From NCBI RefSeq assembly GCF_003018255.1, contig NZ_CP027440.1: a stretch of DNA of 64,000 bases; one strand, given 5' to 3'. Under the pieces are notes generated by a model, which worked only from the letters and a program-made list of their open reading frames with translations, had not been told where the DNA came from and searched no databases. Source of the DNA: Escherichia coli. GTDB lineage: Bacteria > Pseudomonadota > Gammaproteobacteria > Enterobacterales > Enterobacteriaceae. Both the position numbers and the translations under genes were made by a program. Below, in pieces: positions 5,075 through 32,101 of this stretch; position 1 is the first letter of the stretch, and every line of letters begins with the position of its first letter.

Positions 5075-6853
5075 TTATGTGTTTAACAACTCATATTTCT
5101 TAATCTTGCGATAGAGCGTAGCAATGCCGATGCCCAGTTCATCAGCAACTTCCTTCTTGCTGTTATGACGTGAAAGCGCCTCGCGGATCATTTGCTTTTC
5201 CATCTCCTCCAGCGCCGTGCCGCCCGCATCATCGAGTGCCAGGTGCGCCTCACTGACCTCTGTTACATCACTTTGCTCCGTTGTGCCATTATTCAGCAGA
5301 TTTGGCGGCAATAGCGTGCTGTCGATAACTTCACCTGAAGGAACCACGTTAACCAGATATTCCATCAAATTGCTTAACTCGCGCAGGTTTCCGGGCCAAC
5401 GATGCTTACGCAATATTTCGACGACATCGGGAGCAATGCCCGGATAAACCGATCCCAGACGACGGGTATGCAGATGTAAAAAGTAATGCACCAGTAGTTC
5501 AATATCTTCCTGACGTTCACGCAGCGGTGGCAGAGTTATCGGGATAACATTAAGTCGGTAGAAGAGATCTTCGCGGAATTTACCTTCGGAAATGAACTGG
5601 GCCAAATTCTGGTTAGTTGCAGAAATGATGCGAATGTCGACTTGTATTGGGCTACTGGCACCAATCGGCAGAATTTCACGTGCCTCAATAGCGCGCAGTA
5701 ATTTAGCCTGCAACATTAATGGCATATCACCTATTTCATCGAGAAACAGCGTGCCCGTATTCGCCGCCTGAATCAACCCTGTTTTACCGTTGGCAGAAGC
5801 GCCAGTAAATGCGCCTTTAACATAACCGAACAGTTCGCTCTCCAGAAGCTGCTCCGGAATCGCGGCACAGTTGATAGCAATAAAAGGTTTATTCCGTCTT
5901 CCGCTCAACTTATGGATTGCACGGGCGACGACTTCTTTACCCGTGCCGCTTTCGCCAACCACCATAACGCTGGATGGGCTGGGTGCAATACGGCTAATGA
6001 GTCGTTTTAATTGCCGCATAACACGGCACTCGCCAACCAATTGTTCAATATGCGGTTCATCAGGTGCATTTGCTACAGAAAAACTGGTATGCGATTGGTG
6101 AAACGCCATTAAAAATAATTGTCGGCCCTGAATGTTATGCAATTGACCAATGATTAATTCACTTTTATCGTCCCACGAAACAATATGCTGCATATGTCCA
6201 TGGGTAAAATTACTCTCAAATGTTAATGGTCTGAAACGAACAGGTTTCCCAATAATATTATTTTGCACAACACCGAGTGTTTTTAAGGCAGTCTGATTAA
6301 CAAACTGAACCCGATTTTCGTCATCAACAACTAAAACGCCCTGATCCATATTATCGATCATGGTCGCGAATATTTTACTGATGTTATCTCCTGGCCCCTG
6401 ATCCTCCAGAAGTTTCGAAACAAAAATGGTGGATATATGGCGAACGTAATCAGAAAATTCGCGTAAATTATCACTGATATGTTCTTGTTGCTCGTGGGTA
6501 ACGGCAATCAAACTTATCACCCCAACACAACGATCCTGTAAAATGACAGGCGTACCCAGAAATGCTTTTTCGCGGCAATTTTCTTTACTATCGCAACCTT
6601 CACAAAGGGGATCGAAGCGAGACTGTGTCACAACTTTTTCAGTTTTCGTTTCCAGGACGTGGCGGAGCAGGCGTGAGTTGCCGCTCAACTGGCGACCAAG
6701 AAACTTCCCATACGCGCCCGTTCCGGCGACGCGACACAAGTTTTCATCAACGATCTCAACCTCAAGCTGCAAAACGCTGGCAAGCATTCTGGCAAAACGC
6801 TGAATTGTCGGTTGAATTTGCATCAATACTGACTGCGTAGTAGCAAGCTCCAT
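5075..6853 (-). CDS. ygeV: sigma-54-dependent transcriptional activator (bacterial enhancer-binding protein)
   Basis: 592 aa; Walker A GESGTGKE, sigma-54 contact motif GAFTGA, C-terminal HTH (IATLYRKIKKY), N-terminal sensory region. Confidence 0.9.
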   Translation of the reverse strand: MELATTQSVLMQIQPTIQRFARMLASVLQLEVEIVDENLCRVAGTGAYGKFLGRQLSGNSRLLRHVLETKTEKVVTQSRFDPLCEGCDSKENCREKAFLGTPVILQDRCVGVISLIAVTHEQQEHISDNLREFSDYVRHISTIFVSKLLEDQGPGDNISKIFATMIDNMDQGVLVVDDENRVQFVNQTALKTLGVVQNNIIGKPVRFRPLTFESNFTHGHMQHIVSWDDKSELIIGQLHNIQGRQLFLMAFHQSHTSFSVANAPDEPHIEQLVGECRVMRQLKRLISRIAPSPSSVMVVGESGTGKEVVARAIHKLSGRRNKPFIAINCAAIPEQLLESELFGYVKGAFTGASANGKTGLIQAANTGTLFLDEIGDMPLMLQAKLLRAIEAREILPIGASSPIQVDIRIISATNQNLAQFISEGKFREDLFYRLNVIPITLPPLRERQEDIELLVHYFLHLHTRRLGSVYPGIAPDVVEILRKHRWPGNLRELSNLMEYLVNVVPSGEVIDSTLLPPNLLNNGTTEQSDVTEVSEAHLALDDAGGTALEEMEKQMIREALSRHNSKKEVADELGIGIATLYRKIKKYELLNT

Positions 6854-7222
6854 AGCTTTACCTTCCAGACTTACTTAAAAGTCGATCATTGAAGACGTTG
6901 ATGGTTCATAGATCATGATGATATTAACTCAGGCGAAATTGGCTTTGATAAAAACATAAGATTTTTATCACTTTCTAATGAAATTATGGAAGAGATATCA
7001 CATTTCTATATCAATATGAGAATTACGGCGGTGAGTTTATCAAACTGAAGAGAGATCGCCTGTCCCTTTATCTTATTTCTGATACTTAGCAGCAAATAAA
7101 TAACGCGATAAAAAAAGCCAAACGTTTTCGTATTTTACAAACAACCAGAAGCTGGCATCAATTTGTGATCAACCCCACACATTATCCGTCAAATTAGTCT
7201 TTTGCAGCCCCGTGGATAATTC

Positions 7223-7238
7223 TGGCACACTTATTGTT
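7223..7238 (+). promoter_or_regulatory. candidate sigma-54 -24/-12 promoter upstream of ygeW
   Basis: TGGCACacttaTTGTT: exact -24 TGGCAC, correct spacing, -12 TTGT instead of TTGC; about 90 nt upstream of the ygeW ATG. Confidence 0.35.
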
Positions 7239-7328
7239 AGTCCCAGGTATAGCTGTGAAAACACCAATCACGTTGGCAAGTCACAGTGAAATAAACCACT
7301 TTGCCTGTCATTCCACTACCGGGACTTT

Positions 7329-8519
7329 ATGATGAAAACTGTTAATGAGCTGATTAAGGATATCAATTCGCTGACCTCTCACCTTCACGAGAAAGATTTT
7401 TTGTTAACGTGGGAACAGACGCCAGATGAACTGAAACAAGTACTGGACGTTGCCGCAGCATTAAAAGCACTGCGTGCTGAAAACATCTCAACCAAAGTCT
7501 TTAATAGTGGATTAGGTATTTCCGTATTCCGCGACAACTCCACCCGTACCCGCTTCTCTTATGCTTCCGCGCTTAACCTGCTCGGCCTTGCACAGCAAGA
7601 TCTCGACGAAGGCAAATCACAAATCGCTCACGGCGAAACCGTGCGTGAAACCGCCAATATGATCTCCTTCTGCGCCGACGCTATTGGTATTCGCGACGAT
7701 ATGTATCTGGGCGCAGGCAACGCCTATATGCGTGAAGTTGGCGCTGCACTTGATGACGGTTACAAGCAGGGTGTGCTGCCGCAACGTCCGGCTTTAGTGA
7801 ACCTGCAATGCGATATTGACCACCCGACTCAGTCAATGGCTGACCTGGCATGGTTACGTGAACACTTTGGTTCACTGGAAAACCTGAAAGGTAAAAAAAT
7901 CGCCATGACCTGGGCCTACTCCCCAAGCTATGGCAAACCGCTCTCTGTACCACAAGGCATCATCGGTCTGATGACTCGCTTCGGTATGGATGTCACCCTG
8001 GCCCATCCGGAAGGCTACGACCTGATCCCGGATGTCGTTGAAGTCGCTAAAAACAATGCTAAAGCCTCCGGCGGTAGCTTCCGTCAGGTCACCAGCATGG
8101 AAGAAGCCTTCAAAGACGCAGACATCGTTTATCCGAAGTCATGGGCACCTTACAAAGTGATGGAAGAGCGTACTGAATTGCTGCGTGCGAACGATCACGA
8201 AGGCTTAAAAGCACTGGAAAAACAGTGTCTGGCACAGAACGCGCAACACAAAGACTGGCATTGTACTGAAGAGATGATGGAACTGACCCGTGATGGCGAA
8301 GCCCTGTACATGCACTGCCTGCCAGCTGATATCAGCGGCGTATCCTGCAAAGAAGGTGAAGTGACTGAAGGCGTATTCGAAAAATACCGTATCGCTACCT
8401 ACAAAGAAGCCAGCTGGAAGCCTTATATCATCGCCGCGATGATCCTGTCCCGTAAATACGCCAAACCAGGTGCACTGCTCGAGCAACTGCTGAAAGAAGC
8501 GCAAGAACGCGTGAAATAA
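7329..8519 (+). CDS. ygeW: carbamoyltransferase (ornithine/aspartate transcarbamylase fold; recalled as oxamate carbamoyltransferase)
   Basis: 396 aa; carbamoyl-phosphate binding motif STRTR (NSTRTRFSYASA). Confidence 0.85.
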   Translation: MMKTVNELIKDINSLTSHLHEKDFLLTWEQTPDELKQVLDVAAALKALRAENISTKVFNSGLGISVFRDNSTRTRFSYASALNLLGLAQQDLDEGKSQIAHGETVRETANMISFCADAIGIRDDMYLGAGNAYMREVGAALDDGYKQGVLPQRPALVNLQCDIDHPTQSMADLAWLREHFGSLENLKGKKIAMTWAYSPSYGKPLSVPQGIIGLMTRFGMDVTLAHPEGYDLIPDVVEVAKNNAKASGGSFRQVTSMEEAFKDADIVYPKSWAPYKVMEERTELLRANDHEGLKALEKQCLAQNAQHKDWHCTEEMMELTRDGEALYMHCLPADISGVSCKEGEVTEGVFEKYRIATYKEASWKPYIIAAMILSRKYAKPGALLEQLLKEAQERVK

Positions 8520-8525
8520 CCCCTC

Positions 8526-8547
8526 GGGCCGATCAGCTGGTCGGCCC
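8526..8547 (+). terminator. hairpin downstream of ygeW (weak terminator or mRNA stabiliser)
   Basis: GGGCCGA-tcagctgg-TCGGCCC stem-loop right after the ygeW stop; weak T tract. Confidence 0.35.
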
Positions 8548-8576: not shown

Positions 8577-9773
8577 ATGTCCGTTTTCTCATTGAAGATT
8601 GATATCGCCGATAACAAATTTTTCAACGGCGAAACATCACCGCTTTTTTCGCAAAGCCAGGCAAAACTGGCACGCCAGTTCCACCAGAAAATTGCTGGTT
8701 ATCACCCAACACCGCTTTGTGCGCTGGACGATCTCGCAAACCTGTTTGGTGTAAAGAAAATTCTCGTCAAAGACGAATCAAAACGATTCGGTCTGAACGC
8801 CTTCAAAATGCTTGGCGGTGCGTACGCCATCGCTCAATTATTGTGTGAAAAATATCATCTTGATATCGAAACGCTGTCATTTGAGCACCTGAAAAATGCC
8901 ATCGGCGAAAAAATGACTTTCGCGACTACCACCGACGGCAACCACGGGCGCGGTGTGGCATGGGCAGCACAGCAACTCGGACAGAATGCGGTGATTTACA
9001 TGCCGAAAGGTTCTGCTCAGGAACGCGTTGACGCCATTCTAAACCTCGGTGCCGAGTGCATCGTCACGGATATGAACTATGACGATACCGTTCGCCTGAC
9101 CATGCAACACGCGCAGCAGCACGGCTGGGAAGTGGTACAGGACACGGCATGGGAAGGTTACACCAAAATCCCAACCTGGATCATGCAAGGCTACGCAACA
9201 CTGGCGGATGAAGCCGTCGAGCAAATGCGTGAAATGGGCGTCACCCCGACACACGTTCTGCTGCAAGCCGGTGTCGGTGCAATGGCCGGTGGTGTGCTGG
9301 GTTATCTGGTCGACGTCTATAGCCCGCAAAATCTGCACAGCATTATTGTTGAACCTGACAAAGCTGACTGTATTTATCGCTCCGGCGTCAAAGGCGACAT
9401 CGTCAACGTTGGCGGTGATATGGCCACCATCATGGCGGGCCTGGCCTGCGGCGAACCTAACCCACTGGGCTGGGAAATCCTACGTAACTGCGCCACCCAA
9501 TTCATCTCCTGCCAGGACAGCGTTGCCGCATTAGGTATGCGCGTGCTGGGTAATCCGTATGGCAACGACCCGCGCATCATCTCCGGTGAATCCGGCGCTG
9601 TCGGTTTGGGCGTTCTCGCAGCGGTTCATTATCACCCGCAACGTCAAAGCCTGATGGAAAAACTGGCGCTGAACAAAGATGCCGTGGTGCTGGTTATCAG
9701 CACTGAAGGCGACACCGACGTGAAGCACTACCGCGAAGTTGTCTGGGAAGGCAAACACGCTGTAGCACCTTAA
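8577..9773 (+). CDS. ygeX: PLP-dependent 2,3-diaminopropionate ammonia-lyase
   Basis: 398 aa; fold-type II PLP enzyme lysine motif (NAFKMLGGAY). Confidence 0.85.
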   Translation: MSVFSLKIDIADNKFFNGETSPLFSQSQAKLARQFHQKIAGYHPTPLCALDDLANLFGVKKILVKDESKRFGLNAFKMLGGAYAIAQLLCEKYHLDIETLSFEHLKNAIGEKMTFATTTDGNHGRGVAWAAQQLGQNAVIYMPKGSAQERVDAILNLGAECIVTDMNYDDTVRLTMQHAQQHGWEVVQDTAWEGYTKIPTWIMQGYATLADEAVEQMREMGVTPTHVLLQAGVGAMAGGVLGYLVDVYSPQNLHSIIVEPDKADCIYRSGVKGDIVNVGGDMATIMAGLACGEPNPLGWEILRNCATQFISCQDSVAALGMRVLGNPYGNDPRIISGESGAVGLGVLAAVHYHPQRQSLMEKLALNKDAVVLVISTEGDTDVKHYREVVWEGKHAVAP

Positions 9774-9830
9774 TCACCCTATTGGAACTGCTCCCTGCAA
9801 AACGGGGAGTAAAAAATCTGGAGAAAAATA

Positions 9831-11042
9831 ATGGCTAAGAATATTCCATTCAAACTGATTCTTGAAAAAGCAAAAGATTACCAGGCAGACATGACTCGCT
9901 TCCTGCGCGATATGGTTGCTATTCCCAGTGAAAGCTGCGACGAGAAACGCGTAGTACATCGTATTAAAGAAGAGATGGAAAAAGTCGGCTTCGATAAAGT
10001 TGAAATCGACCCGATGGGCAACGTTCTCGGTTATATCGGCCACGGCCCGCGTCTGGTGGCAATGGACGCTCATATCGATACCGTCGGCATTGGCAACATC
10101 AAAAACTGGGACTTCGATCCGTACGAAGGCATGGAAACTGATGAGCTGATCGGTGGTCGCGGTACTTCCGACCAGGAAGGCGGCATGGCATCTATGGTTT
10201 ATGCCGGTAAAATCATTAAAGACCTCGGTCTGGAAGATGAATATACCCTGCTGGTTACCGGTACTGTGCAGGAAGAAGACTGCGACGGCCTGTGCTGGCA
10301 GTACATTATTGAACAATCCGGCATTCGCCCGGAATTTGTGGTCAGTACCGAACCAACCGACTGCCAGGTATACCGTGGTCAGCGCGGTCGTATGGAAATT
10401 CGTATTGATGTTCAGGGTGTGAGCTGCCACGGTTCTGCACCAGAACGCGGTGACAACGCCATTTTCAAAATGGGTCCGATTCTTGGCGAATTACAAGAAC
10501 TCTCCCAACGTCTGGGTTATGACGAATTCCTCGGCAAAGGCACCCTCACCGTTTCTGAAATCTTCTTCACATCCCCAAGCCGTTGCGCTGTAGCAGATAG
10601 CTGCGCCGTCTCTATTGACCGCCGTCTGACCTGGGGCGAAACCTGGGAAGGCGCGCTGGACGAAATCCGCGCCCTGCCTGCAGTACAGAAAGCTAACGCG
10701 GTTGTTTCTATGTACAACTACGACCGTCCGTCCTGGACTGGCCTGGTTTACCCAACCGAATGCTACTTCCCGACCTGGAAAGTGGAAGAAGATCACTTCA
10801 CCGTTAAAGCACTGGTGAATGCCTACGAAGGTCTGTTTGGCAAAGCGCCGGTTGTTGATAAGTGGACCTTCTCAACTAACGGCGTATCTATCATGGGCCG
10901 TCACGGCATTCCGGTGATCGGCTTTGGCCCGGGTAAAGAACCTGAAGCGCATGCACCTAACGAAAAAACCTGGAAATCTCACCTGGTGACCTGTGCCGCG
11001 ATGTACGCTGCAATCCCGTTAAGCTGGCTGGCAACCGAATAA
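9831..11042 (+). CDS. ygeY: M20-family metallopeptidase / amidohydrolase (ArgE/DapE-like)
   Basis: 403 aa; M20-type metal-ligand pattern. Confidence 0.8.
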
Positions 11043-11094
11043 TTACTCTTCACTTATTCCCCTCCGGTTCGCCGGAGGGTTTTTGGAGTTTGCT

Positions 11095-12480
11095 ATGCGC
11101 GTATTGATCAAAAACGGCACTGTCGTTAACGCAGATGGACAAGCCAAACAAGATTTGCTGATTGAGAGCGGGATTGTTCGCCAATTGGGCAGCAATATTT
11201 CGCCGCAGGTCCCGTATGAAGAAATTGATGCCACTGGCTGTTACGTTTTCCCTGGCGGCGTGGATGTCCATACGCATTTCAATATTGATGTCGGCATCGC
11301 GCGCAGTTGTGATGATTTTTTTACCGGTACCCGCGCAGCTGCGTGTGGCGGTACAACAACCATTATTGACCATATGGGATTTGGCCCGAATGGCTGCCGG
11401 TTACGCCATCAACTGGAAGTTTATCGCGGTTATGCCGCCCACAAAGCAGTCATCGACTACAGCTTTCACGGTGTCATTCAACATATCAATCACGCTATCC
11501 TCGACGAAATTCCGATGATGGTTGAGGAAGGACTGAGCAGTTTTAAACTCTATTTAACCTATCAATATAAACTCAACGATGATGAAGTGTTGCAGGCATT
11601 ACGCCGCTTGCATGAATCCGGCGCGCTGACCACCGTGCACCCGGAAAATGACGCAGCTATCGCCAGCAAGCGGGCGGAGTTTATCGCCGCAGGGTTAACC
11701 GCGCCGCGTTATCATGCCTTGAGTCGACCTCTGGAATGCGAAGCGGAAGCCATCGCCCGCATGATTAACCTGGCACAAATTGCCGGTAACGCCCCGCTCT
11801 ATATCGTGCACCTGTCTAACGGCTTAGGTCTGGATTATCTGCGTCTTGCCCGTGCGAATCACCAGCCAGTCTGGGTTGAAACCTGCCCACAATATCTCCT
11901 GTTGGACGAACGCAGTTACGATACAGAAGATGGCATGAAGTTCATTCTTAGCCCACCGCTGCGTAACGTACGCGAGCAGGACAAACTGTGGTGTGGCATC
12001 AGCGATGGTGCGATTGACGTGGTAGCGACCGATCACTGCACATTCTCGATGGCTCAACGCCTGCAAATTTCTAAAGGCGATTTCAGTCGCTGCCCAAATG
12101 GCTTACCCGGTGTGGAAAACCGCATGCAGTTACTGTTTTCCAGTGGCGTTATGACGGGACGTATAACACCGGAACGTTTTGTTGAATTAACCAGCGCGAT
12201 GCCCGCCAGGCTGTTTGGCCTGTGGCCGCAAAAAGGATTATTAGCGCCCGGTTCCGATGGCGACGTGGTGATTATCGACCCACGTCAGAGTCAACAAATT
12301 CAGCATCGCCATCTCCACGACAACGCCGACTACTCGCCATGGGAGGGTTTTACCTGTCAGGGCGCGATTGTCAGAACTTTATCCCGTGGTGAAACGATTT
12401 TCTGTGACGGCACCTTTACAGGCAAAGCCGGGCGAGGTCGTTTCCTGCGACGCAAACCGTTTGTCCCTCCCGTGCTCTAA
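11095..12480 (+). CDS. hyuA: cyclic amidohydrolase (D-hydantoinase/dihydropyrimidinase family)
   Basis: Track ORF 11083..12480; start trimmed to MRVLIKNG (461 aa); metal-binding HxH motif GGVDVHTHF. Confidence 0.85.
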   Translation: MRVLIKNGTVVNADGQAKQDLLIESGIVRQLGSNISPQVPYEEIDATGCYVFPGGVDVHTHFNIDVGIARSCDDFFTGTRAAACGGTTTIIDHMGFGPNGCRLRHQLEVYRGYAAHKAVIDYSFHGVIQHINHAILDEIPMMVEEGLSSFKLYLTYQYKLNDDEVLQALRRLHESGALTTVHPENDAAIASKRAEFIAAGLTAPRYHALSRPLECEAEAIARMINLAQIAGNAPLYIVHLSNGLGLDYLRLARANHQPVWVETCPQYLLLDERSYDTEDGMKFILSPPLRNVREQDKLWCGISDGAIDVVATDHCTFSMAQRLQISKGDFSRCPNGLPGVENRMQLLFSSGVMTGRITPERFVELTSAMPARLFGLWPQKGLLAPGSDGDVVIIDPRQSQQIQHRHLHDNADYSPWEGFTCQGAIVRTLSRGETIFCDGTFTGKAGRGRFLRRKPFVPPVL

Positions 12481-12527
12481 CCACTGCCAGGGATCTATAC
12501 ACAATCAAGAATGATGAGTGAGGAAAA

Positions 12528-13460
12528 ATGAGTAAGAAAATTGTTCTCGCCCTGGGCGGGAATGCGCTGGGCGATGACCTGGCCGGACAAATGAAAGCGG
12601 TAAAAATTACTTCTCAGGCAATTGTTGATTTAATTGCCCAGGGACATGAAGTTATCGTCACTCACGGTAACGGGCCACAGGTGGGCATGATTAACCAGGC
12701 CTTTGAAGCTGCCGCAAAAACTGAAGCGCACTCGCCAATGCTGCCGATGTCTGTCTGTGTTGCCTTAAGCCAGGGTTATATTGGTTACGATCTACAAAAC
12801 GCATTAAGAGAAGAACTGCTTTCTCGTGGCATTAATAAACCTGTAGCAACGCTGGTTACCCAGGTCGAAGTCGATGCTAACGACCCGGCATTCCTCAACC
12901 CGACCAAGCCGATCGGTTCGTTCTTTACCGAGCAGGAAGCAGAGCAACTGACAAAACAGGGTTACACTCTGAAAGAAGATGCTGGTCGCGGCTATCGCCG
13001 TGTTGTTGCCTCGCCGAAACCGGTTGATATTATTGAAAAAGAGACGGTAAAAGCGCTGGTAGAAGCAGGCCAGGTAGTGATCACCGTTGGCGGTGGTGGC
13101 ATTCCCGTTATTCGTGAAGGGAACCATCTGCGCGGTGCCAGTGCGGTTATCGATAAAGACTGGGCCAGCGCCCGTTTAGCAGAAATGATTGATGCCGATA
13201 TGCTGATCATTCTGACTGCGGTAGAAAAAGTGGCCATTAACTTCGGTAAAGAGAATGAACAGTGGCTCGATCGCCTGTCATTAAGTGATGCTGAACGCTT
13301 TATCGAAGAAGGTCATTTTGCGAAAGGTTCTATGCTGCCTAAAGTGGAAGCTGCCGCCTCGTTTGCTCGCTCTCGCGCAGGTCGTGAAGCACTGATTACC
13401 GTATTGAGCAAAGCGAAAGAAGGGATTGAAGGCAAAACCGGAACGGTGATTTGTCAGTAA
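12528..13460 (+). CDS. yqeA: carbamate kinase-like protein
   Basis: 310 aa; amino-acid kinase family N-terminus KIVLALGGNALG. Confidence 0.85.
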   Translation: MSKKIVLALGGNALGDDLAGQMKAVKITSQAIVDLIAQGHEVIVTHGNGPQVGMINQAFEAAAKTEAHSPMLPMSVCVALSQGYIGYDLQNALREELLSRGINKPVATLVTQVEVDANDPAFLNPTKPIGSFFTEQEAEQLTKQGYTLKEDAGRGYRRVVASPKPVDIIEKETVKALVEAGQVVITVGGGGIPVIREGNHLRGASAVIDKDWASARLAEMIDADMLIILTAVEKVAINFGKENEQWLDRLSLSDAERFIEEGHFAKGSMLPKVEAAASFARSRAGREALITVLSKAKEGIEGKTGTVICQ

Positions 13461-13466
13461 TTTAAA

Positions 13467-13497
13467 GGCCGGGTGGGTAATACCATCCGGCCATTTT
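13467..13497 (+). terminator. intrinsic terminator after yqeA
   Basis: GGCCGGGTGG-gtaata-CCATCCGGCC hairpin followed by ATTTTC. Confidence 0.5.
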
Positions 13498-15173: not shown

Positions 15174-15944
15174 CTAATTCACAAATCTGCGCGCGATTGC
15201 AGGATGTTCTTGTATATCGCCCAGCCAGATTGCCTCTACGTCGTGTTGTTGCAGCGGTTGAAGGAGCTCGCTTTGCGCAATCGCATTCTCACATTGAGAA
15301 AAACGGTTAATGAACCAGACTCGCCGACAACCTTGCGGTACGTTTTTAAACGCCCCCTGAGGGTGGCGAACCAGCGCAACGAGATCGCTCAGTTGCAAGG
15401 TTGCATCAGGTGTTAACCCGGTAATATCAGCAAACTGCGACCAGCGATGGACATTTTCTGTGCTCACTTTCGCACCCAAAATATGTCCTCCCATCACAGC
15501 AATCACGCAGCAACTGCTTTTAGGTATGCAAGGTTCGTGCTCATCAGGCGCTTTTAACGGCATTCCACGCGAGCCATCTGCCTCAATGAGAATTACGTCA
15601 CACTCTGATCGTTGTACCAGTGCATCAATCGCTTCTGGCGTAAATCCCTGCACTTTTCCCTGGTTCGCTTTCCAGCTGTGAAAACAAAATGAAATGGGGG
15701 ATATAAAAGACGCATGAGGAAGCATGGCGGGATCACGACAGAAAACCACGGGCCAGTGAGATGTTGGCATAAACATATGTGTCGTCGTAGTGATTAATAC
15801 ACGCCTGCCGCTCGCCTGGAACAGTTCTGCCAGCCAAAAAAGCAAGCTGGTTTTCCCCCCAGCACCAACAACAGAAATCACAGTGGGACGTTTCTGCGCG
15901 CCTAAATCAATGAATAATGCCGATGGGTCAATTATACTTTTCAC
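15174..15944 (-). CDS. yqeC: putative selenium-dependent molybdenum hydroxylase accessory protein (P-loop)
   Basis: 256 aa; P-loop-like VVGAGGKTSLLFWL. Confidence 0.75.
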   Translation of the reverse strand: MKSIIDPSALFIDLGAQKRPTVISVVGAGGKTSLLFWLAELFQASGRRVLITTTTHMFMPTSHWPVVFCRDPAMLPHASFISPISFCFHSWKANQGKVQGFTPEAIDALVQRSECDVILIEADGSRGMPLKAPDEHEPCIPKSSCCVIAVMGGHILGAKVSTENVHRWSQFADITGLTPDATLQLSDLVALVRHPQGAFKNVPQGCRRVWFINRFSQCENAIAQSELLQPLQQHDVEAIWLGDIQEHPAIARRFVN

Positions 15945-16626: not shown

Positions 16627-16677
16627 AAAACGTAGTTAAACGATTGCGTTCAAATATTTAATCCCTCCAGCACTCTT

Positions 16678-16692
16678 TATCATAATGATAAG
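16678..16692. promoter_or_regulatory. perfect 7-1-7 palindrome TTATCAT-A-ATGATAA upstream of ygfK
   Basis: Read directly from the sequence; further TGATAA/TTATCAC-type half-sites nearby (16723-16730 GTGATAAA). Confidence 0.3.
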
Positions 16693-16859
16693 GAATCACT
16701 GATTTTGAGAAAAGAGAAAAAGTGATAAATGGGCTGGCAATAATAATTTTCAGGAGTGATTTTAATTCTCATTTGGCACCTGTGAGTTCATTCACAAAAA
16801 GCCATTAAGTTTCGAGCCGCCTCACATTTTTTTATATTTCCCGCCAAACCTGGCAAGAG

Positions 16860-16875
16860 TGGTGCGATTGTTGCT
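16860..16875 (+). promoter_or_regulatory. candidate sigma-54 -24/-12 promoter upstream of ygfK
   Basis: TGGtgCGattgTTGCT: GG-N10-GC spacing with TTGC -12 element; about 75 nt upstream of the ygfK ATG. Confidence 0.35.
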
Positions 16876-16947: not shown

Positions 16948-19900
16948 ATGGGGGATATTATGCGTCCCATTCCGTTTGAGGAACTTTTGACGCGCATATT
17001 TGATGAATACCAACAACAACGCTCAATCTTTGGTATTCCCGAGCAACAGTTTTACTCACCCGTAAAAGGTAAAACTGTTAGCGTCTTCGGTGAAACCTGT
17101 GCCACTCCCGTCGGCCCTGCCGCTGGCCCGCACACGCAGCTCGCGCAAAATATTGTCACTTCCTGGCTGACTGGCGGACGCTTCATCGAACTAAAAACCG
17201 TCCAAATTCTTGACCGCCTGGAGCTGGAAAAGCCCTGTATCGATGCCGAAGACGAGTGCTTTAACACCGAATGGTCTACCGAATTTACCCTGCTTAAAGC
17301 CTGGGATGAATACCTCAAAGCCTGGTTTGCCCTGCACCTTCTCGAAGCGATGTTCCAGCCTTCTGATTCCTGTAAATCGTTCATCTTTAATATGAGCGTC
17401 GGTTACAACCTCGAAGGTATTAAGCAACCGCCGATGCAGCAGTTCATCGACAATATGATGGACGCATCTGACCATCCGAAATTCGCTCAATACCGCGATG
17501 CACTTAATAAGCTACTCCAGGATGACGCATTTTTAGCCCGCCACGGCTTACAGGAAAAACGCGAAAGCTTGCAAGCCTTACCCGCTCGCATCCCCACCAG
17601 CATGGTACAAGGGGTTACCCTCTCCACCATGCACGGCTGTCCTCCGCATGAAATCGAAGCCATTTGCCGCTACATGCTGGAAGAAAAAGGGCTCAACACC
17701 TTTGTGAAACTCAACCCGACCTTACTGGGGTACGCGCGTGTTCGTGAGATCCTCGATGTCTGCGGTTTCGGTTACATCGGCTTAAAAGAAGAGTCATTTG
17801 ATCACGACCTCAAGCTGACGCAAGCACTGGAAATGCTGGAACGCCTGATGGCACTGGCAAAAGAAAAATCACTCGGCTTTGGCGTAAAACTGACTAACAC
17901 TCTCGGCACCATTAATAACAAAGGCGCACTGCCCGGTGAAGAGATGTATATGTCAGGCCGTGCGCTGTTCCCGCTCTCCATCAACGTTGCAGCAGTTCTC
18001 TCTCGCGCCTTTGACGGCAAACTGCCCATTTCTTATTCCGGTGGTGCCAGTCAGCTGACTATCCGCGATATTTTTGATACTGGTATTCGCCCTATTACTA
18101 TGGCAACCGACCTGCTGAAACCTGGCGGCTATCTGCGCTTAAGTGCCTGCATGCGCGAGCTGGAAGGCTCAGATGCCTGGGAGCTTAACCACGTTGACGT
18201 CGAACGACTGAACAGACTGGCAGCAGACGCGTTAACCATGGAATACACCCAGAAACACTGGAAGCCAGAAGAGCGTATTGAAGTGGCTGAAGACCTGCCG
18301 CTGACCGATTGCTACGTTGCCCCCTGTGTTACTGCCTGCGCTATCAAGCAAGATATTCCGGAATACATCCGTCTGCTTGGCGAACACCGCTATGCCGACG
18401 CGCTGGAACTCATCTATCAACGCAACGCCCTGCCCGCCATTACCGGTCATATTTGCGATCACCAGTGCCAATACAACTGTACCCGCCTGGATTACGACAG
18501 TGCGCTGAATATCCGCGAACTGAAAAAAGTCGCGCTGGAAAAAGGTTGGGATGAATATAAGCAACGCTGGCACAAACCAGCCGGTTCTGGTTCACGCCAT
18601 CCGGTTGCCGTGATTGGTGCAGGTCCGGCGGGTCTGGCAGCAGGTTACTTCCTTGCCAGAGCGGGCCATCCGGTTACGCTGTTTGAACGCGAAGCCAATG
18701 CGGGCGGCGTGGTGAAAAATATCATTCCTCAGTTCCGTATTCCTGCAGAGTTAATTCAGCACGATATCGATTTTGTTGCCGCTCACGGCGTAAAATTTGA
18801 GTATGGCTGCTCACCGGATCTGACCGTTGAACAGTTAAAAAATCAGGGCTTCCACTATGTTCTGATTGCCACCGGCACTGATAAAAATAGCGGTGTGAAA
18901 CTGGCGGGCGACAACCAAAATGTCTGGAAATCACTCCCCTTCCTGCGTGAATACAACAAGGGCACAGCGCTCAAGCTGGGCAAACATGTGGTCGTTGTCG
19001 GGGCGGGTAACACGGCAATGGACTGCGCTCGTGCGGCGTTACGCGTTCCAGGCGTAGAAAAAGCAACGGTCGTTTACCGTCGTTCACTGCAAGAGATGCC
19101 AGCATGGCGCGAAGAGTATGAAGAAGCGTTGCACGACGGCGTGGAGTTCCGTTTCCTGAATAATCCGGAACGTTTCGATGCTGATGGCACCTTAACCTTG
19201 CGCGTTATGTCGCTTGGCGAACCTGATGAGAAAGGTCGTCGCCGTCCGGTTGAAACCAACGAAACAGTAACACTGCATGTAGACAGCCTGATCACCGCCA
19301 TTGGTGAACAGCAGGATACTGAAGCCCTGAATGCGATGGGCGTGCCGCTGGACAAAAACGGCTGGCCAGACGTCGACCATAATGGCGAAACGCGTCTGAG
19401 TGACGTCTTTATGATCGGCGACGTACAGCGCGGACCATCCTCCATTGTCGCTGCTGTCGGAACCGCGCGTCGGGCGACCGATGCCATCCTGAGTCGGGAA
19501 AATATCCGTTCCCACCAGAACGATAAATACTGGAATAACGTCAATCCGGCGGAAATCTATCAACGTAAAGGCGATATCTCTGTCACTCTGGTGAACAGTG
19601 ACGATCGTGACGCGTTTGTCGCGCAGGAAGCCGCTCGCTGCCTTGAATGTAACTACGTTTGCAGCAAGTGTGTGGATGTCTGCCCGAACCGCGCCAACGT
19701 ATCCATTGCGGTCCCAGGCTTCCAGAACCGTTTCCAGACGCTGCATCTCGACGCCTACTGCAACGAATGCGGCAACTGCGCCCAATTCTGCCCGTGGAAC
19801 GGTAAACCGTACAAAGACAAAATCACCGTCTTCAGCCTGTCGCAAGACTTTGATAACAGCAGCAACCCAGGCTTCCTTGTGGAAGATTGCCGGGTACGCG

Positions 19901-31819: not shown

Positions 31820-32101
31820 TTGCATCCCTTTCATTTAATGAGTTATGTCTTCTCAAATTTCGCGATGCAATAAATGGGCATGTATTAGGTAGCATGGCCG
31901 ATTTAATTATAATTTTGCGACTGAGTTCAAATTATTGCCCCTCAATCTATGCAGCTTTCATTATTTCAACATTGCCGATCAAAAGAATGCTATCCAGATA
32001 AAAACGATTAAATGCGAGAGTGCGACATGCCAGAATGATTAATGAAATATCAATATGAGAAAATTACAGATAATTCCATTGTCAGGTTCTCTTCTCATTT
32101 T

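Follow-up and report, generated by a model that had tools for sequence, protein, structure and literature searches.

Sigma-54 at ygeW and the closest described systems

The sigma-54 site upstream of ygeW in Escherichia coli is already known, both as a published binding site and as a predicted promoter. It was listed as OS30 in Table 1 of Bonocora et al. (2015; PMC4591121), with a ChIP-seq peak at 3004190 and the motif CTGGCACACTTATTGTT on the + strand, 80 bp upstream of ygeW, and because it carried no EcoCyc status, it was new as of 2015. Its enrichment was among the lowest of the intergenic sites (fold-above-threshold (FAT) of 3; 26 for ygfK and 11 for xdhA), and the authors cautioned that a sigma-54 binding site need not be a promoter. 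A genomic SELEX peak of the RpoN holoenzyme, with 53-55% relative height, was obtained in vitro in the ygeV/ygeW spacer (Shimada et al. 2021; PMC8743547), and ygeW (b2870) was among the sigma-54 promoters predicted by Francke et al. (2011). As cited by Lamoureux et al. (2023), Reitzer and Schneider (2001) placed sigma-54 promoters upstream of xdhABC and ygeWXY. Lamoureux et al. (2023) also defined a YgeV iModulon (xdhABC, ygeWXY, hyuA, ygfK, ssnA, ygfM, xdhD, ygfT and uacT), whose membership covers ygeW plus the downstream genes ygeX/dpaL, ygeY, hyuA and yqeA/arcC. In the literature, we found neither a mapped start site for ygeW nor data on its rpoN or ygeV dependence or from reporters.

The product of ygeW has an enzymatic role in reductive uric acid degradation (PMC12507026). 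The ygeW operon is the lower part of the reductive uric acid/purine degradation pathway and, together with its neighbours, belongs to the recently solved anaerobic uric acid degradation of gut bacteria, which is being engineered for gout therapy (PMC12507026).

The arrangement of ygeV and ygeW resembles that of norR-norVW, hycA/hypA-fhlA and prpR-prpBCDE, in which the gene of an enhancer-binding protein is divergent from its neighbour and the activator sites are in the common spacer. The prpR-prpBCDE system is reportedly positively dependent on CRP-cAMP. For the pathway itself, the closest case is in Clostridiales, where the sigma-54 activator of the DioR regulon (Nie et al. 2019) was predicted to act over the homologues of dpaL, ygeW-ygfK-ssnA-ygeY, yqeB/yqeC and pbuX, so that the same pathway is under sigma-54 control in another phylum. 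However, DioR differs from YgeV in its activator lineage and its upstream motif, and the Firmicutes ygeW loci that we examined are generally without a sigma-54 motif directly upstream.

The ygeW core element and its conservation

We analyzed a 64-kb stretch of E. coli DNA (hereafter, the window) from a strain other than K-12. The motif TGGCACACTTATTGTT is located at 7223-7238 (+), 93 nt 5' of the E. coli ygeW start codon. The 17-mer at 7222-7238 is identical to that of OS30 and lies on the same strand upstream of the same gene; the two are thus the same object, with two substitutions in the flanking 67 nt. The original prediction was of a candidate sigma-54 promoter with an exact -24 TGGCAC and canonical spacing to a near-consensus -12 TTGT, placed in a 475-bp divergent ygeV-ygeW spacer, and each of these points was confirmed. 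TGGCAC at 7223-7228 is an exact -24 match, with GG in the TGGCAC context, and the spacing of TGGCAC-N5-TTGC is kept exactly, the sole departure from the consensus being T for C at -12 (GT replaces GC). The spacer is 478 bp to the annotated start of ygeW at 7332, and 475 bp if counted to the first ATG, which is in frame at 7329. The features of this region are as follows.

5075-6853, - strand: ygeV, annotated as a sigma-54 interaction domain protein and the divergent neighbour of ygeW
7222-7238, + strand: predicted sigma-54 core promoter CTGGCACACTTATTGTT, with -24 GG at 7224-7225 and -12 GT at 7236-7237
7246-7250, + strand: predicted transcription start, with +1 at about 7249 from the -24/-12 geometry
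7332-8519, + strand: ygeW, encoding a knotted carbamoyltransferase, as the first gene in the transcribed unit
8577-13460, + strand: ygeX/dpaL, ygeY, hyuA and yqeA/arcC, co-oriented downstream of ygeW according to the gene order

The upstream side of the ygeV-ygeW locus is occupied by xdhABC. On the downstream side, ygeX/dpaL, ygeY, hyuA and yqeA/arcC are probably co-transcribed with ygeW, at least in part. G+C-rich hairpins were found at 8526-8547 after ygeW, at 11060-11079 after ygeY (with a T-run) and at 13467-13492 after yqeA, the last of these between the convergent yqeA and yqeB, and they suggest partial termination inside the ygeW-yqeA gene string. With initiation some 12 nt past the -12 element, as is typical of sigma-54 promoters, the -24/-12 geometry predicts a leader of ~83 nt ahead of ygeW. 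An Rfam scan of the spacer and the leader gave sub-threshold noise and no family match, and therefore we do not propose a riboswitch for the ygeW leader.

To score the site, we used a 17-column matrix built from 38 intergenic ChIP-bound sites (Bonocora et al.), from which ygeW and three other sites of the window were left out. Such scoring had been suggested with the original prediction, and the ygeW site came out as the top match of the window on both strands (16.3 bits; runner-up, 13.7 bits). The same value is the training median, and 41 published sites evaluated with the 38-site matrix have this median as well. TGGCACN5TTGY has a single match in the 64 kb, where 0.5 are expected by chance over both strands, and hence the consensus count alone is not significant. 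The probability of a 16.3-bit score was 1.8e-6 per position under an iid model, and first-order Markov simulations gave 0.63 such scores per 64 kb on both strands. One such match per window, counting both strands, is therefore unremarkable in itself, and the match alone would be insufficient against the view that it is a chance agreement with the consensus. However, in the 478-bp spacer the Markov expectation on the sense strand is about 0.002, the motif is conserved in all 19 proteobacterial loci described below, and binding has been published. The position, orientation and conservation place the ygeW site beyond chance; a chance match is refuted by the conservation together with the published ChIP-seq data, and we give it practically no credence.

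A scan for YgeW with one genome per species gave 80 loci, including 19 proteobacterial ones (18 gammaproteobacterial and one from Rhodocyclaceae). These represent Edwardsiella, Pluralibacter, Serratia, Enterobacter, Hafnia, Kosakonia, Cedecea, Erwinia, Aeromonas, Photobacterium, the Rhodocyclaceae genome and an E. coli control. A sense-strand sigma-54 motif (12.9-17.1 bits) is present upstream of ygeW in 19/19 proteobacterial loci, at a distance of 68-112 nt from the gene, or 231 nt in one Photobacterium. In each of the 19 loci, the antisense control scored below the sense strand (antisense median about 4 bits; maximum 13.9 bits, in Erwinia). Endozoicomonas carries TTGGCACGCAAGTTGGC, which has a low matrix score. 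In the loci from Bacteroidota, Firmicutes, Spirochaetota and other groups, the motif was not found, except for one 13.1-bit match in a Lachnospiraceae locus. The alignment of 15 ygeV-ygeW spacers showed discrete conserved blocks, the sigma-54 element being the most conserved. Within the species, a 1-kb segment around the motif matches >5,000 complete E. coli genomes with 95-100% identity (5,175 of 5,426 genomes contain the segment), and GG and TTGTT are invariant in five diverse E. coli strains, with TGGCAT in one strain.

The non-consensus base at -12 is itself a conserved feature. In sigma-54 promoters generally, the G of the -12 element hardly varies, and the C is common without being essential. 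Among 49 published E. coli intergenic sites, the -12 base is C in 43 and T or A in six, including the confirmed pspA and pspG promoters, whereas C is found in none of the 19 orthologous ygeW sites (T in 11, A in seven and G in one), although the spacer sequence varies. Replacement by C would bring the ygeW site to 20.1 bits, as against 16.1 bits. In Pseudomonas putida, a large screen performed in vitro recovered TTGAAT and TTGCAT at -12, and the strongest templates had TTGCAT only. T at -12 is compatible with function, since the confirmed promoters of E. coli pspA and pspG have it. These PspF-dependent promoters have the same -12 TTGT as ygeW, but they differ from it in their activator and upstream sites and in their stronger binding in vivo (FAT of 21 and 15 versus 3). 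Because of the conserved non-C base, sigma-54 is expected to bind ygeW more weakly than it would bind a consensus promoter, and the conservation may represent tuning towards low sigma-54 occupancy, which would be consistent with the FAT of 3.

It is conceivable that sigma-54 binds at this position and that ygeW is nevertheless transcribed from elsewhere or hardly at all, and several observations agree with such a situation. The ChIP enrichment is low, the authors' own caution on binding sites and promoters applies (PMC4591121), and the -12 is non-consensus. Furthermore, ygeW is missing from the rpoN microarray table (deletion or overexpression) of Zhao et al. (2010), in which xdhA and ygfK respond, and the YgeV iModulon was seldom active across 1035 RNA-seq samples. 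However, laboratory silence is expected, because the pathway is anaerobic, uric-acid-related and glucose-repressed. A non-functional site is unlikely to be kept at a near-constant distance, together with the palindrome described below and an intact YgeV, from Escherichia to Aeromonas, Photobacterium and Rhodocyclaceae, and ygeWXY co-varies with xdhABC and ygfK, which likewise carry sigma-54 sites. No alternative ygeW promoter is visible either: the sigma-70 scan gave no acceptable promoter before ygeW, and its sole candidate on the + strand of the spacer (7305-7333) overlaps the start codon. We regard this explanation as improbable, and we conclude with good confidence that 7222-7238 is the RpoN promoter of the ygeW operon, probably activated by YgeV from upstream palindromes, with a CRP-like box in between.

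A second sigma-54-like sequence, TGGCATCAATTTGT at 7153-7166, was rejected as an element of its own: its spacer is one base short, it is unconserved, and it was missed by the matrix. This look-alike overlaps the CRP-like box.

YgeV and a conserved palindrome in the spacer

The second part of the original prediction, a gene for an enhancer-binding protein beside its target operon, agrees with the composition of YgeV. The 592 aa of this protein comprise an N-terminal sensor region that matches PAS, a Sigma54_activat AAA+ domain (E = 2.5e-70), an AAA lid and a C-terminal HTH_8, and both the Walker A motif (GESGTGKE) and the GAFTGA loop are intact in the translation. A receiver domain is absent. 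With these domains and motifs intact and without a receiver domain, YgeV is a complete enhancer-binding protein controlled by a ligand or another signal. Since the comparison with NCBIfam gave no equivalog above the cut-off, this database did not reveal the ligand. In the proteobacterial loci, ygeV adjoins ygeW in 15 of 19 cases (14 of these divergent, with the remaining ygeV directly 5' of ygeW in the same orientation) and is absent within the DNA examined in three.

In the alignment of the 15 spacers, the strongest conserved block besides the core promoter is a palindrome, TATCA-N3-TGATA, of which we found no description in the literature. The palindromes and related sequences of the ygeW spacer are as follows.

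6911-6923: distal palindrome-like site GATCATGATGATA, with ATGATA conserved
6996-7008: adjacent half-site block TATCACATTTCTA, with ATCACA conserved in the 15-spacer alignment and two mismatches to the palindrome
7009-7021: candidate YgeV upstream activator site 1, TATCAATATGAGA, TATCA-N3-TGATA, centred at -234 and strongly conserved in 15 spacers
7038-7050: candidate upstream activator site 2, TATCAAACTGAAG, centred at -205, 29 bp after site 1, with TTATCAnnnTG conserved

Further TGATA half-sites are located in the spacer at 6917-6921 and 6946-6950. With one mismatch or less, the palindrome occurs six times in the window (1.35 expected), and none of 100 shuffles reached six. Five of the six occurrences lie within four sigma-54 spacers, namely those of xdhA (1170), ygeW (6911 and 7009), ygfK (16678) and ygfT (32048); the ygfK palindrome is perfect, and that of ygfT is the same 13-mer as TATCAATATGAGA of ygeW. 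At ygeW, ygfK, xdhA and ygfT, the palindrome precedes the sigma-54 promoter by 140-235 nt; relative to the predicted starts, the palindromes are centred at -152 (xdhA), -234 (ygeW), -202 (ygfK) and -199 (ygfT). The 388 kb of orthologous loci contain 59 palindromes, of which 28 are located 120-260 nt upstream of a sigma-54 match, versus about 2% by chance; these counts are phylogenetically non-independent, but they span three different promoters. At ygfK, the palindrome-core distances cluster at 139/140, 160/161 and 181/182 nt, which corresponds to increments of two helical turns. At ygeW, the distances range from 154 to 234 nt across genera without clean classes, and hence we do not claim helical phasing there.

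From these associations in the sequence, TATCA-N3-TGATA is likely to be the binding site of YgeV. The candidate sites of 13 bp are unlike the TGT-N10-12-ACA type of many enhancer-binding proteins, and they are unusually far upstream of ygeW (-205 to -250). The palindrome is nearer to ygeV than to ygeW and could be an autoregulatory ygeV operator, additionally or instead, and the distal site GATCATGATGATA (6911-6923) could equally be assigned to the ygeV promoter. In the spacers of Cedecea sulfonylureivorans (L017) and Erwinia mallotivora (L018), both arms are changed to give TCTCA-N3-TGAGA, and the YgeV sequences of these two loci are the most divergent among the Enterobacterales loci (52-54% identity). 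Symmetric changes of this kind would be expected to be tolerated by a dimeric binding protein. A perfect palindrome inside ygeX (TATCATCTTGATA, 8853-8865) was rejected as a binding site; since other genera have near matches at the corresponding codons, it probably reflects coding constraint.

The layout also bears on whether a sigma-54-dependent ygeW promoter might be served by an activator other than YgeV. The three loci in which ygeV is absent within the DNA examined, and the links made elsewhere between YgeV and phenotypes of an unrelated kind, including indole and LEE expression, would fit another activator. Against this stand the 15 of 19 loci in which the two genes adjoin and the specificity of the palindrome for the purine/uric acid gene cluster within the window, and uric acid degradation was reportedly impaired by mutation of ygeV (Iwadate and Kato 2019, as described in a citing paper). 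We consider a different activator very improbable.

The CRP-like box and the proposed YgeV regulon

Between the palindrome and the core is a third conserved feature of the ygeW spacer.

7164-7179: CRP-like box TGTGATCAACCCCACA, with one mismatch to TGTGA-N6-TCACA and the centre at -77.5 relative to the predicted +1

The box lies 42 nt upstream of the sigma-54 motif. In 16 of the 19 orthologous ygeW loci, including Aeromonas, a box with two mismatches or fewer is found either at -76.5 to -78.5 or at -67.5, which is exactly one turn nearer. The ygfK promoter has a perfect CRP box, TGTGAGTTCATTCACA, at -97.5, which is kept in most genera, and a weaker second box at -67.5. At xdhA and ygfT, CRP-like boxes with two mismatches are located at -67.5 and -68.5; these are individually weak and were identified post hoc. 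The positions -67.5, -77.5 and -97.5 are fixed relative to the core. A native Crp-binding site in the ygeV-ygeW spacer, as well as repression by glucose of uric acid degradation by wild-type E. coli, has been reported (PMC12507026).

The conserved box 42 nt upstream of the motif and the glucose repression of uric acid degradation could also be taken to mean that a CRP-activated sigma-70 promoter drives ygeW and that the sigma-54 match is incidental. However, there is no acceptable -35/-10 pair downstream of 7164-7179, the candidate at 7305-7333 being the one that overlaps the start codon, and the positions that class I (+61.5 or +71.5) and class II (+41.5) activation from the box would require are devoid of a -10-like hexamer. 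Relative to the sigma-54 start, the centre of the box is at -77.5 or -67.5, and the sigma-54 element is the most conserved block of the spacer and is bound in vivo and in vitro. A sigma-70 promoter of this kind is thus highly improbable, and the RpoN promoter activated by YgeV is retained as the preferred reading.

As in glnAp2, dctA and Pu, the CRP site at ygeW is upstream of the sigma-54 core, between the enhancer and the polymerase. At those promoters CRP inhibits, as do all the CRP effects on sigma-54 promoters listed in PMC3900584, whereas glucose repression points to a positive or permissive role at ygeW; a positive role would therefore be unusual. The ygeW-type box is also unlike those of glnAp2, dctA and Pu in having fixed positions in four promoters. 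The IHF consensus WATCAR-N4-TTR had no match between the enhancer and the core in any of the four promoters, and we accordingly do not propose IHF. CRP probably supplies the bend between the enhancer and the ygeW promoter, and this is the least certain step of the hypothesis; a bend supplied by CRP fits the glucose repression and the absence of IHF consensus sites. Alternatively, glucose repression could be indirect rather than an effect of CRP at the ygeW box.

The remaining promoters of the window with this layout are as follows.

1301-1317, + strand: xdhA sigma-54 promoter CTGGCGTAAATCTTGCC, ChIP site OS29, with palindrome-like sequences at 1170-1182 and 1191-1203
16859-16875, + strand: ygfK sigma-54 promoter GTGGTGCGATTGTTGCT, ChIP site OS31, with a palindrome at 16678-16690 and a perfect CRP box at 16781-16796
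31866-31882, - strand: ygfT weak sigma-54 site CATGCCCATTTATTGCA, ChIP site OS32 in K-12, with a palindrome at 32048-32060

At ygfK, ygeW, xdhA and ygfT, the palindrome and the sigma-54 core are found together, also at the orthologues. Because the layout of palindrome, CRP-like box and core recurs, we infer that the four promoters form one YgeV regulon, the assignment to YgeV itself being drawn from the associations above.

Some additional observations were made at these promoters and their surroundings. The ygfK promoter mirrors that of ygeW: in every genus, its -12 is the consensus TTGCT, and its -24 (TGGTGY or TGGCGT) deviates from the consensus. The ygfT site CATGCCCATTTATTGCA is two positions off the OS32 of K-12, TATGCCCGTTTATTGCA, and each has one G only of the -24 GG. 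In several genera, a sigma-54-like (G/A)GGGCACGAACCTTGCA of 14-16 bits is located inside the sense strand of yqeC, upstream of yqeB, at 18347 in locus L002, 18285 in L004, 18253 in L007, 18227 in L009, 20973 in L011 and 19404 in L014 (all on the minus strand). The E. coli counterpart at 15527-15543 (minus), TGAGCACGAACCTTGCA, has a degraded GG and scores 8.7 bits. This motif could be an internal yqeB promoter, or merely conserved codons.

PurR-like sequences were also observed. A box at 7116-7131 of the ygeW spacer, AGCCAAACGTTTTCGT, between the candidate enhancer and the CRP-like box, agrees with ACGCAAACGTTTGCGT at 13 of 16 positions; it is invariant in the five E. coli strains and not kept in other genera. 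The two PurR-like matches, versus 0.62 expected, are not significant alone. A half-PurR-like block, TAAACGATTGCGTTCA, at about 16640-16655, just 5' of the ygfK enhancer, is kept in Edwardsiella, Hafnia and Serratia oryzae. A bioinformatic paper placed ygeW in a predicted PurR cluster.

We propose the following course of events at ygeW. The sigma-54 RNA polymerase binds the -24 TGGCAC and the -12 TTGT, as published from ChIP-seq and SELEX, and would rest there as a closed complex. YgeV would bind the TATCA-N3-TGATA cluster about 205-250 bp upstream of the core and, on a signal that is probably related to purine or uric acid, assemble as the active AAA+ oligomer. This oligomer would contact the polymerase through a DNA loop and open the promoter by ATP hydrolysis, and transcription would then begin near 7249, into ygeW and at least partly into ygeX-ygeY-hyuA-yqeA. 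CRP-cAMP at -77.5 may aid the loop and would thereby tie expression to cAMP.

A more general arrangement can be put forward tentatively, and we hold it to be somewhat less probable than its opposite. At ygeW, ygfK, xdhA and ygfT, a palindromic enhancer, a CRP box at a fixed position (-67.5/-77.5/-97.5, about one turn apart) and a deliberately sub-consensus core might act together, with CRP-cAMP as a positive architectural co-activator that replaces IHF. If true, this would be natural positive CRP control at sigma-54 promoters, unlike the inhibitory cases in PMC3900584, and CRP co-activation would account for the repression by glucose of uric acid degradation in bacteria.

The promoter itself adds nothing new to the published record; the added value is in the conserved enhancer motif, the fixed CRP-like box and the conserved sub-consensus core, which give a testable model of the YgeV regulon in uric acid degradation. 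These native controls, that is, the weak sigma-54 core, the candidate YgeV sites and the CRP-like box, may help to explain the silence of the pathway in the laboratory and to guide its induction or rewiring.
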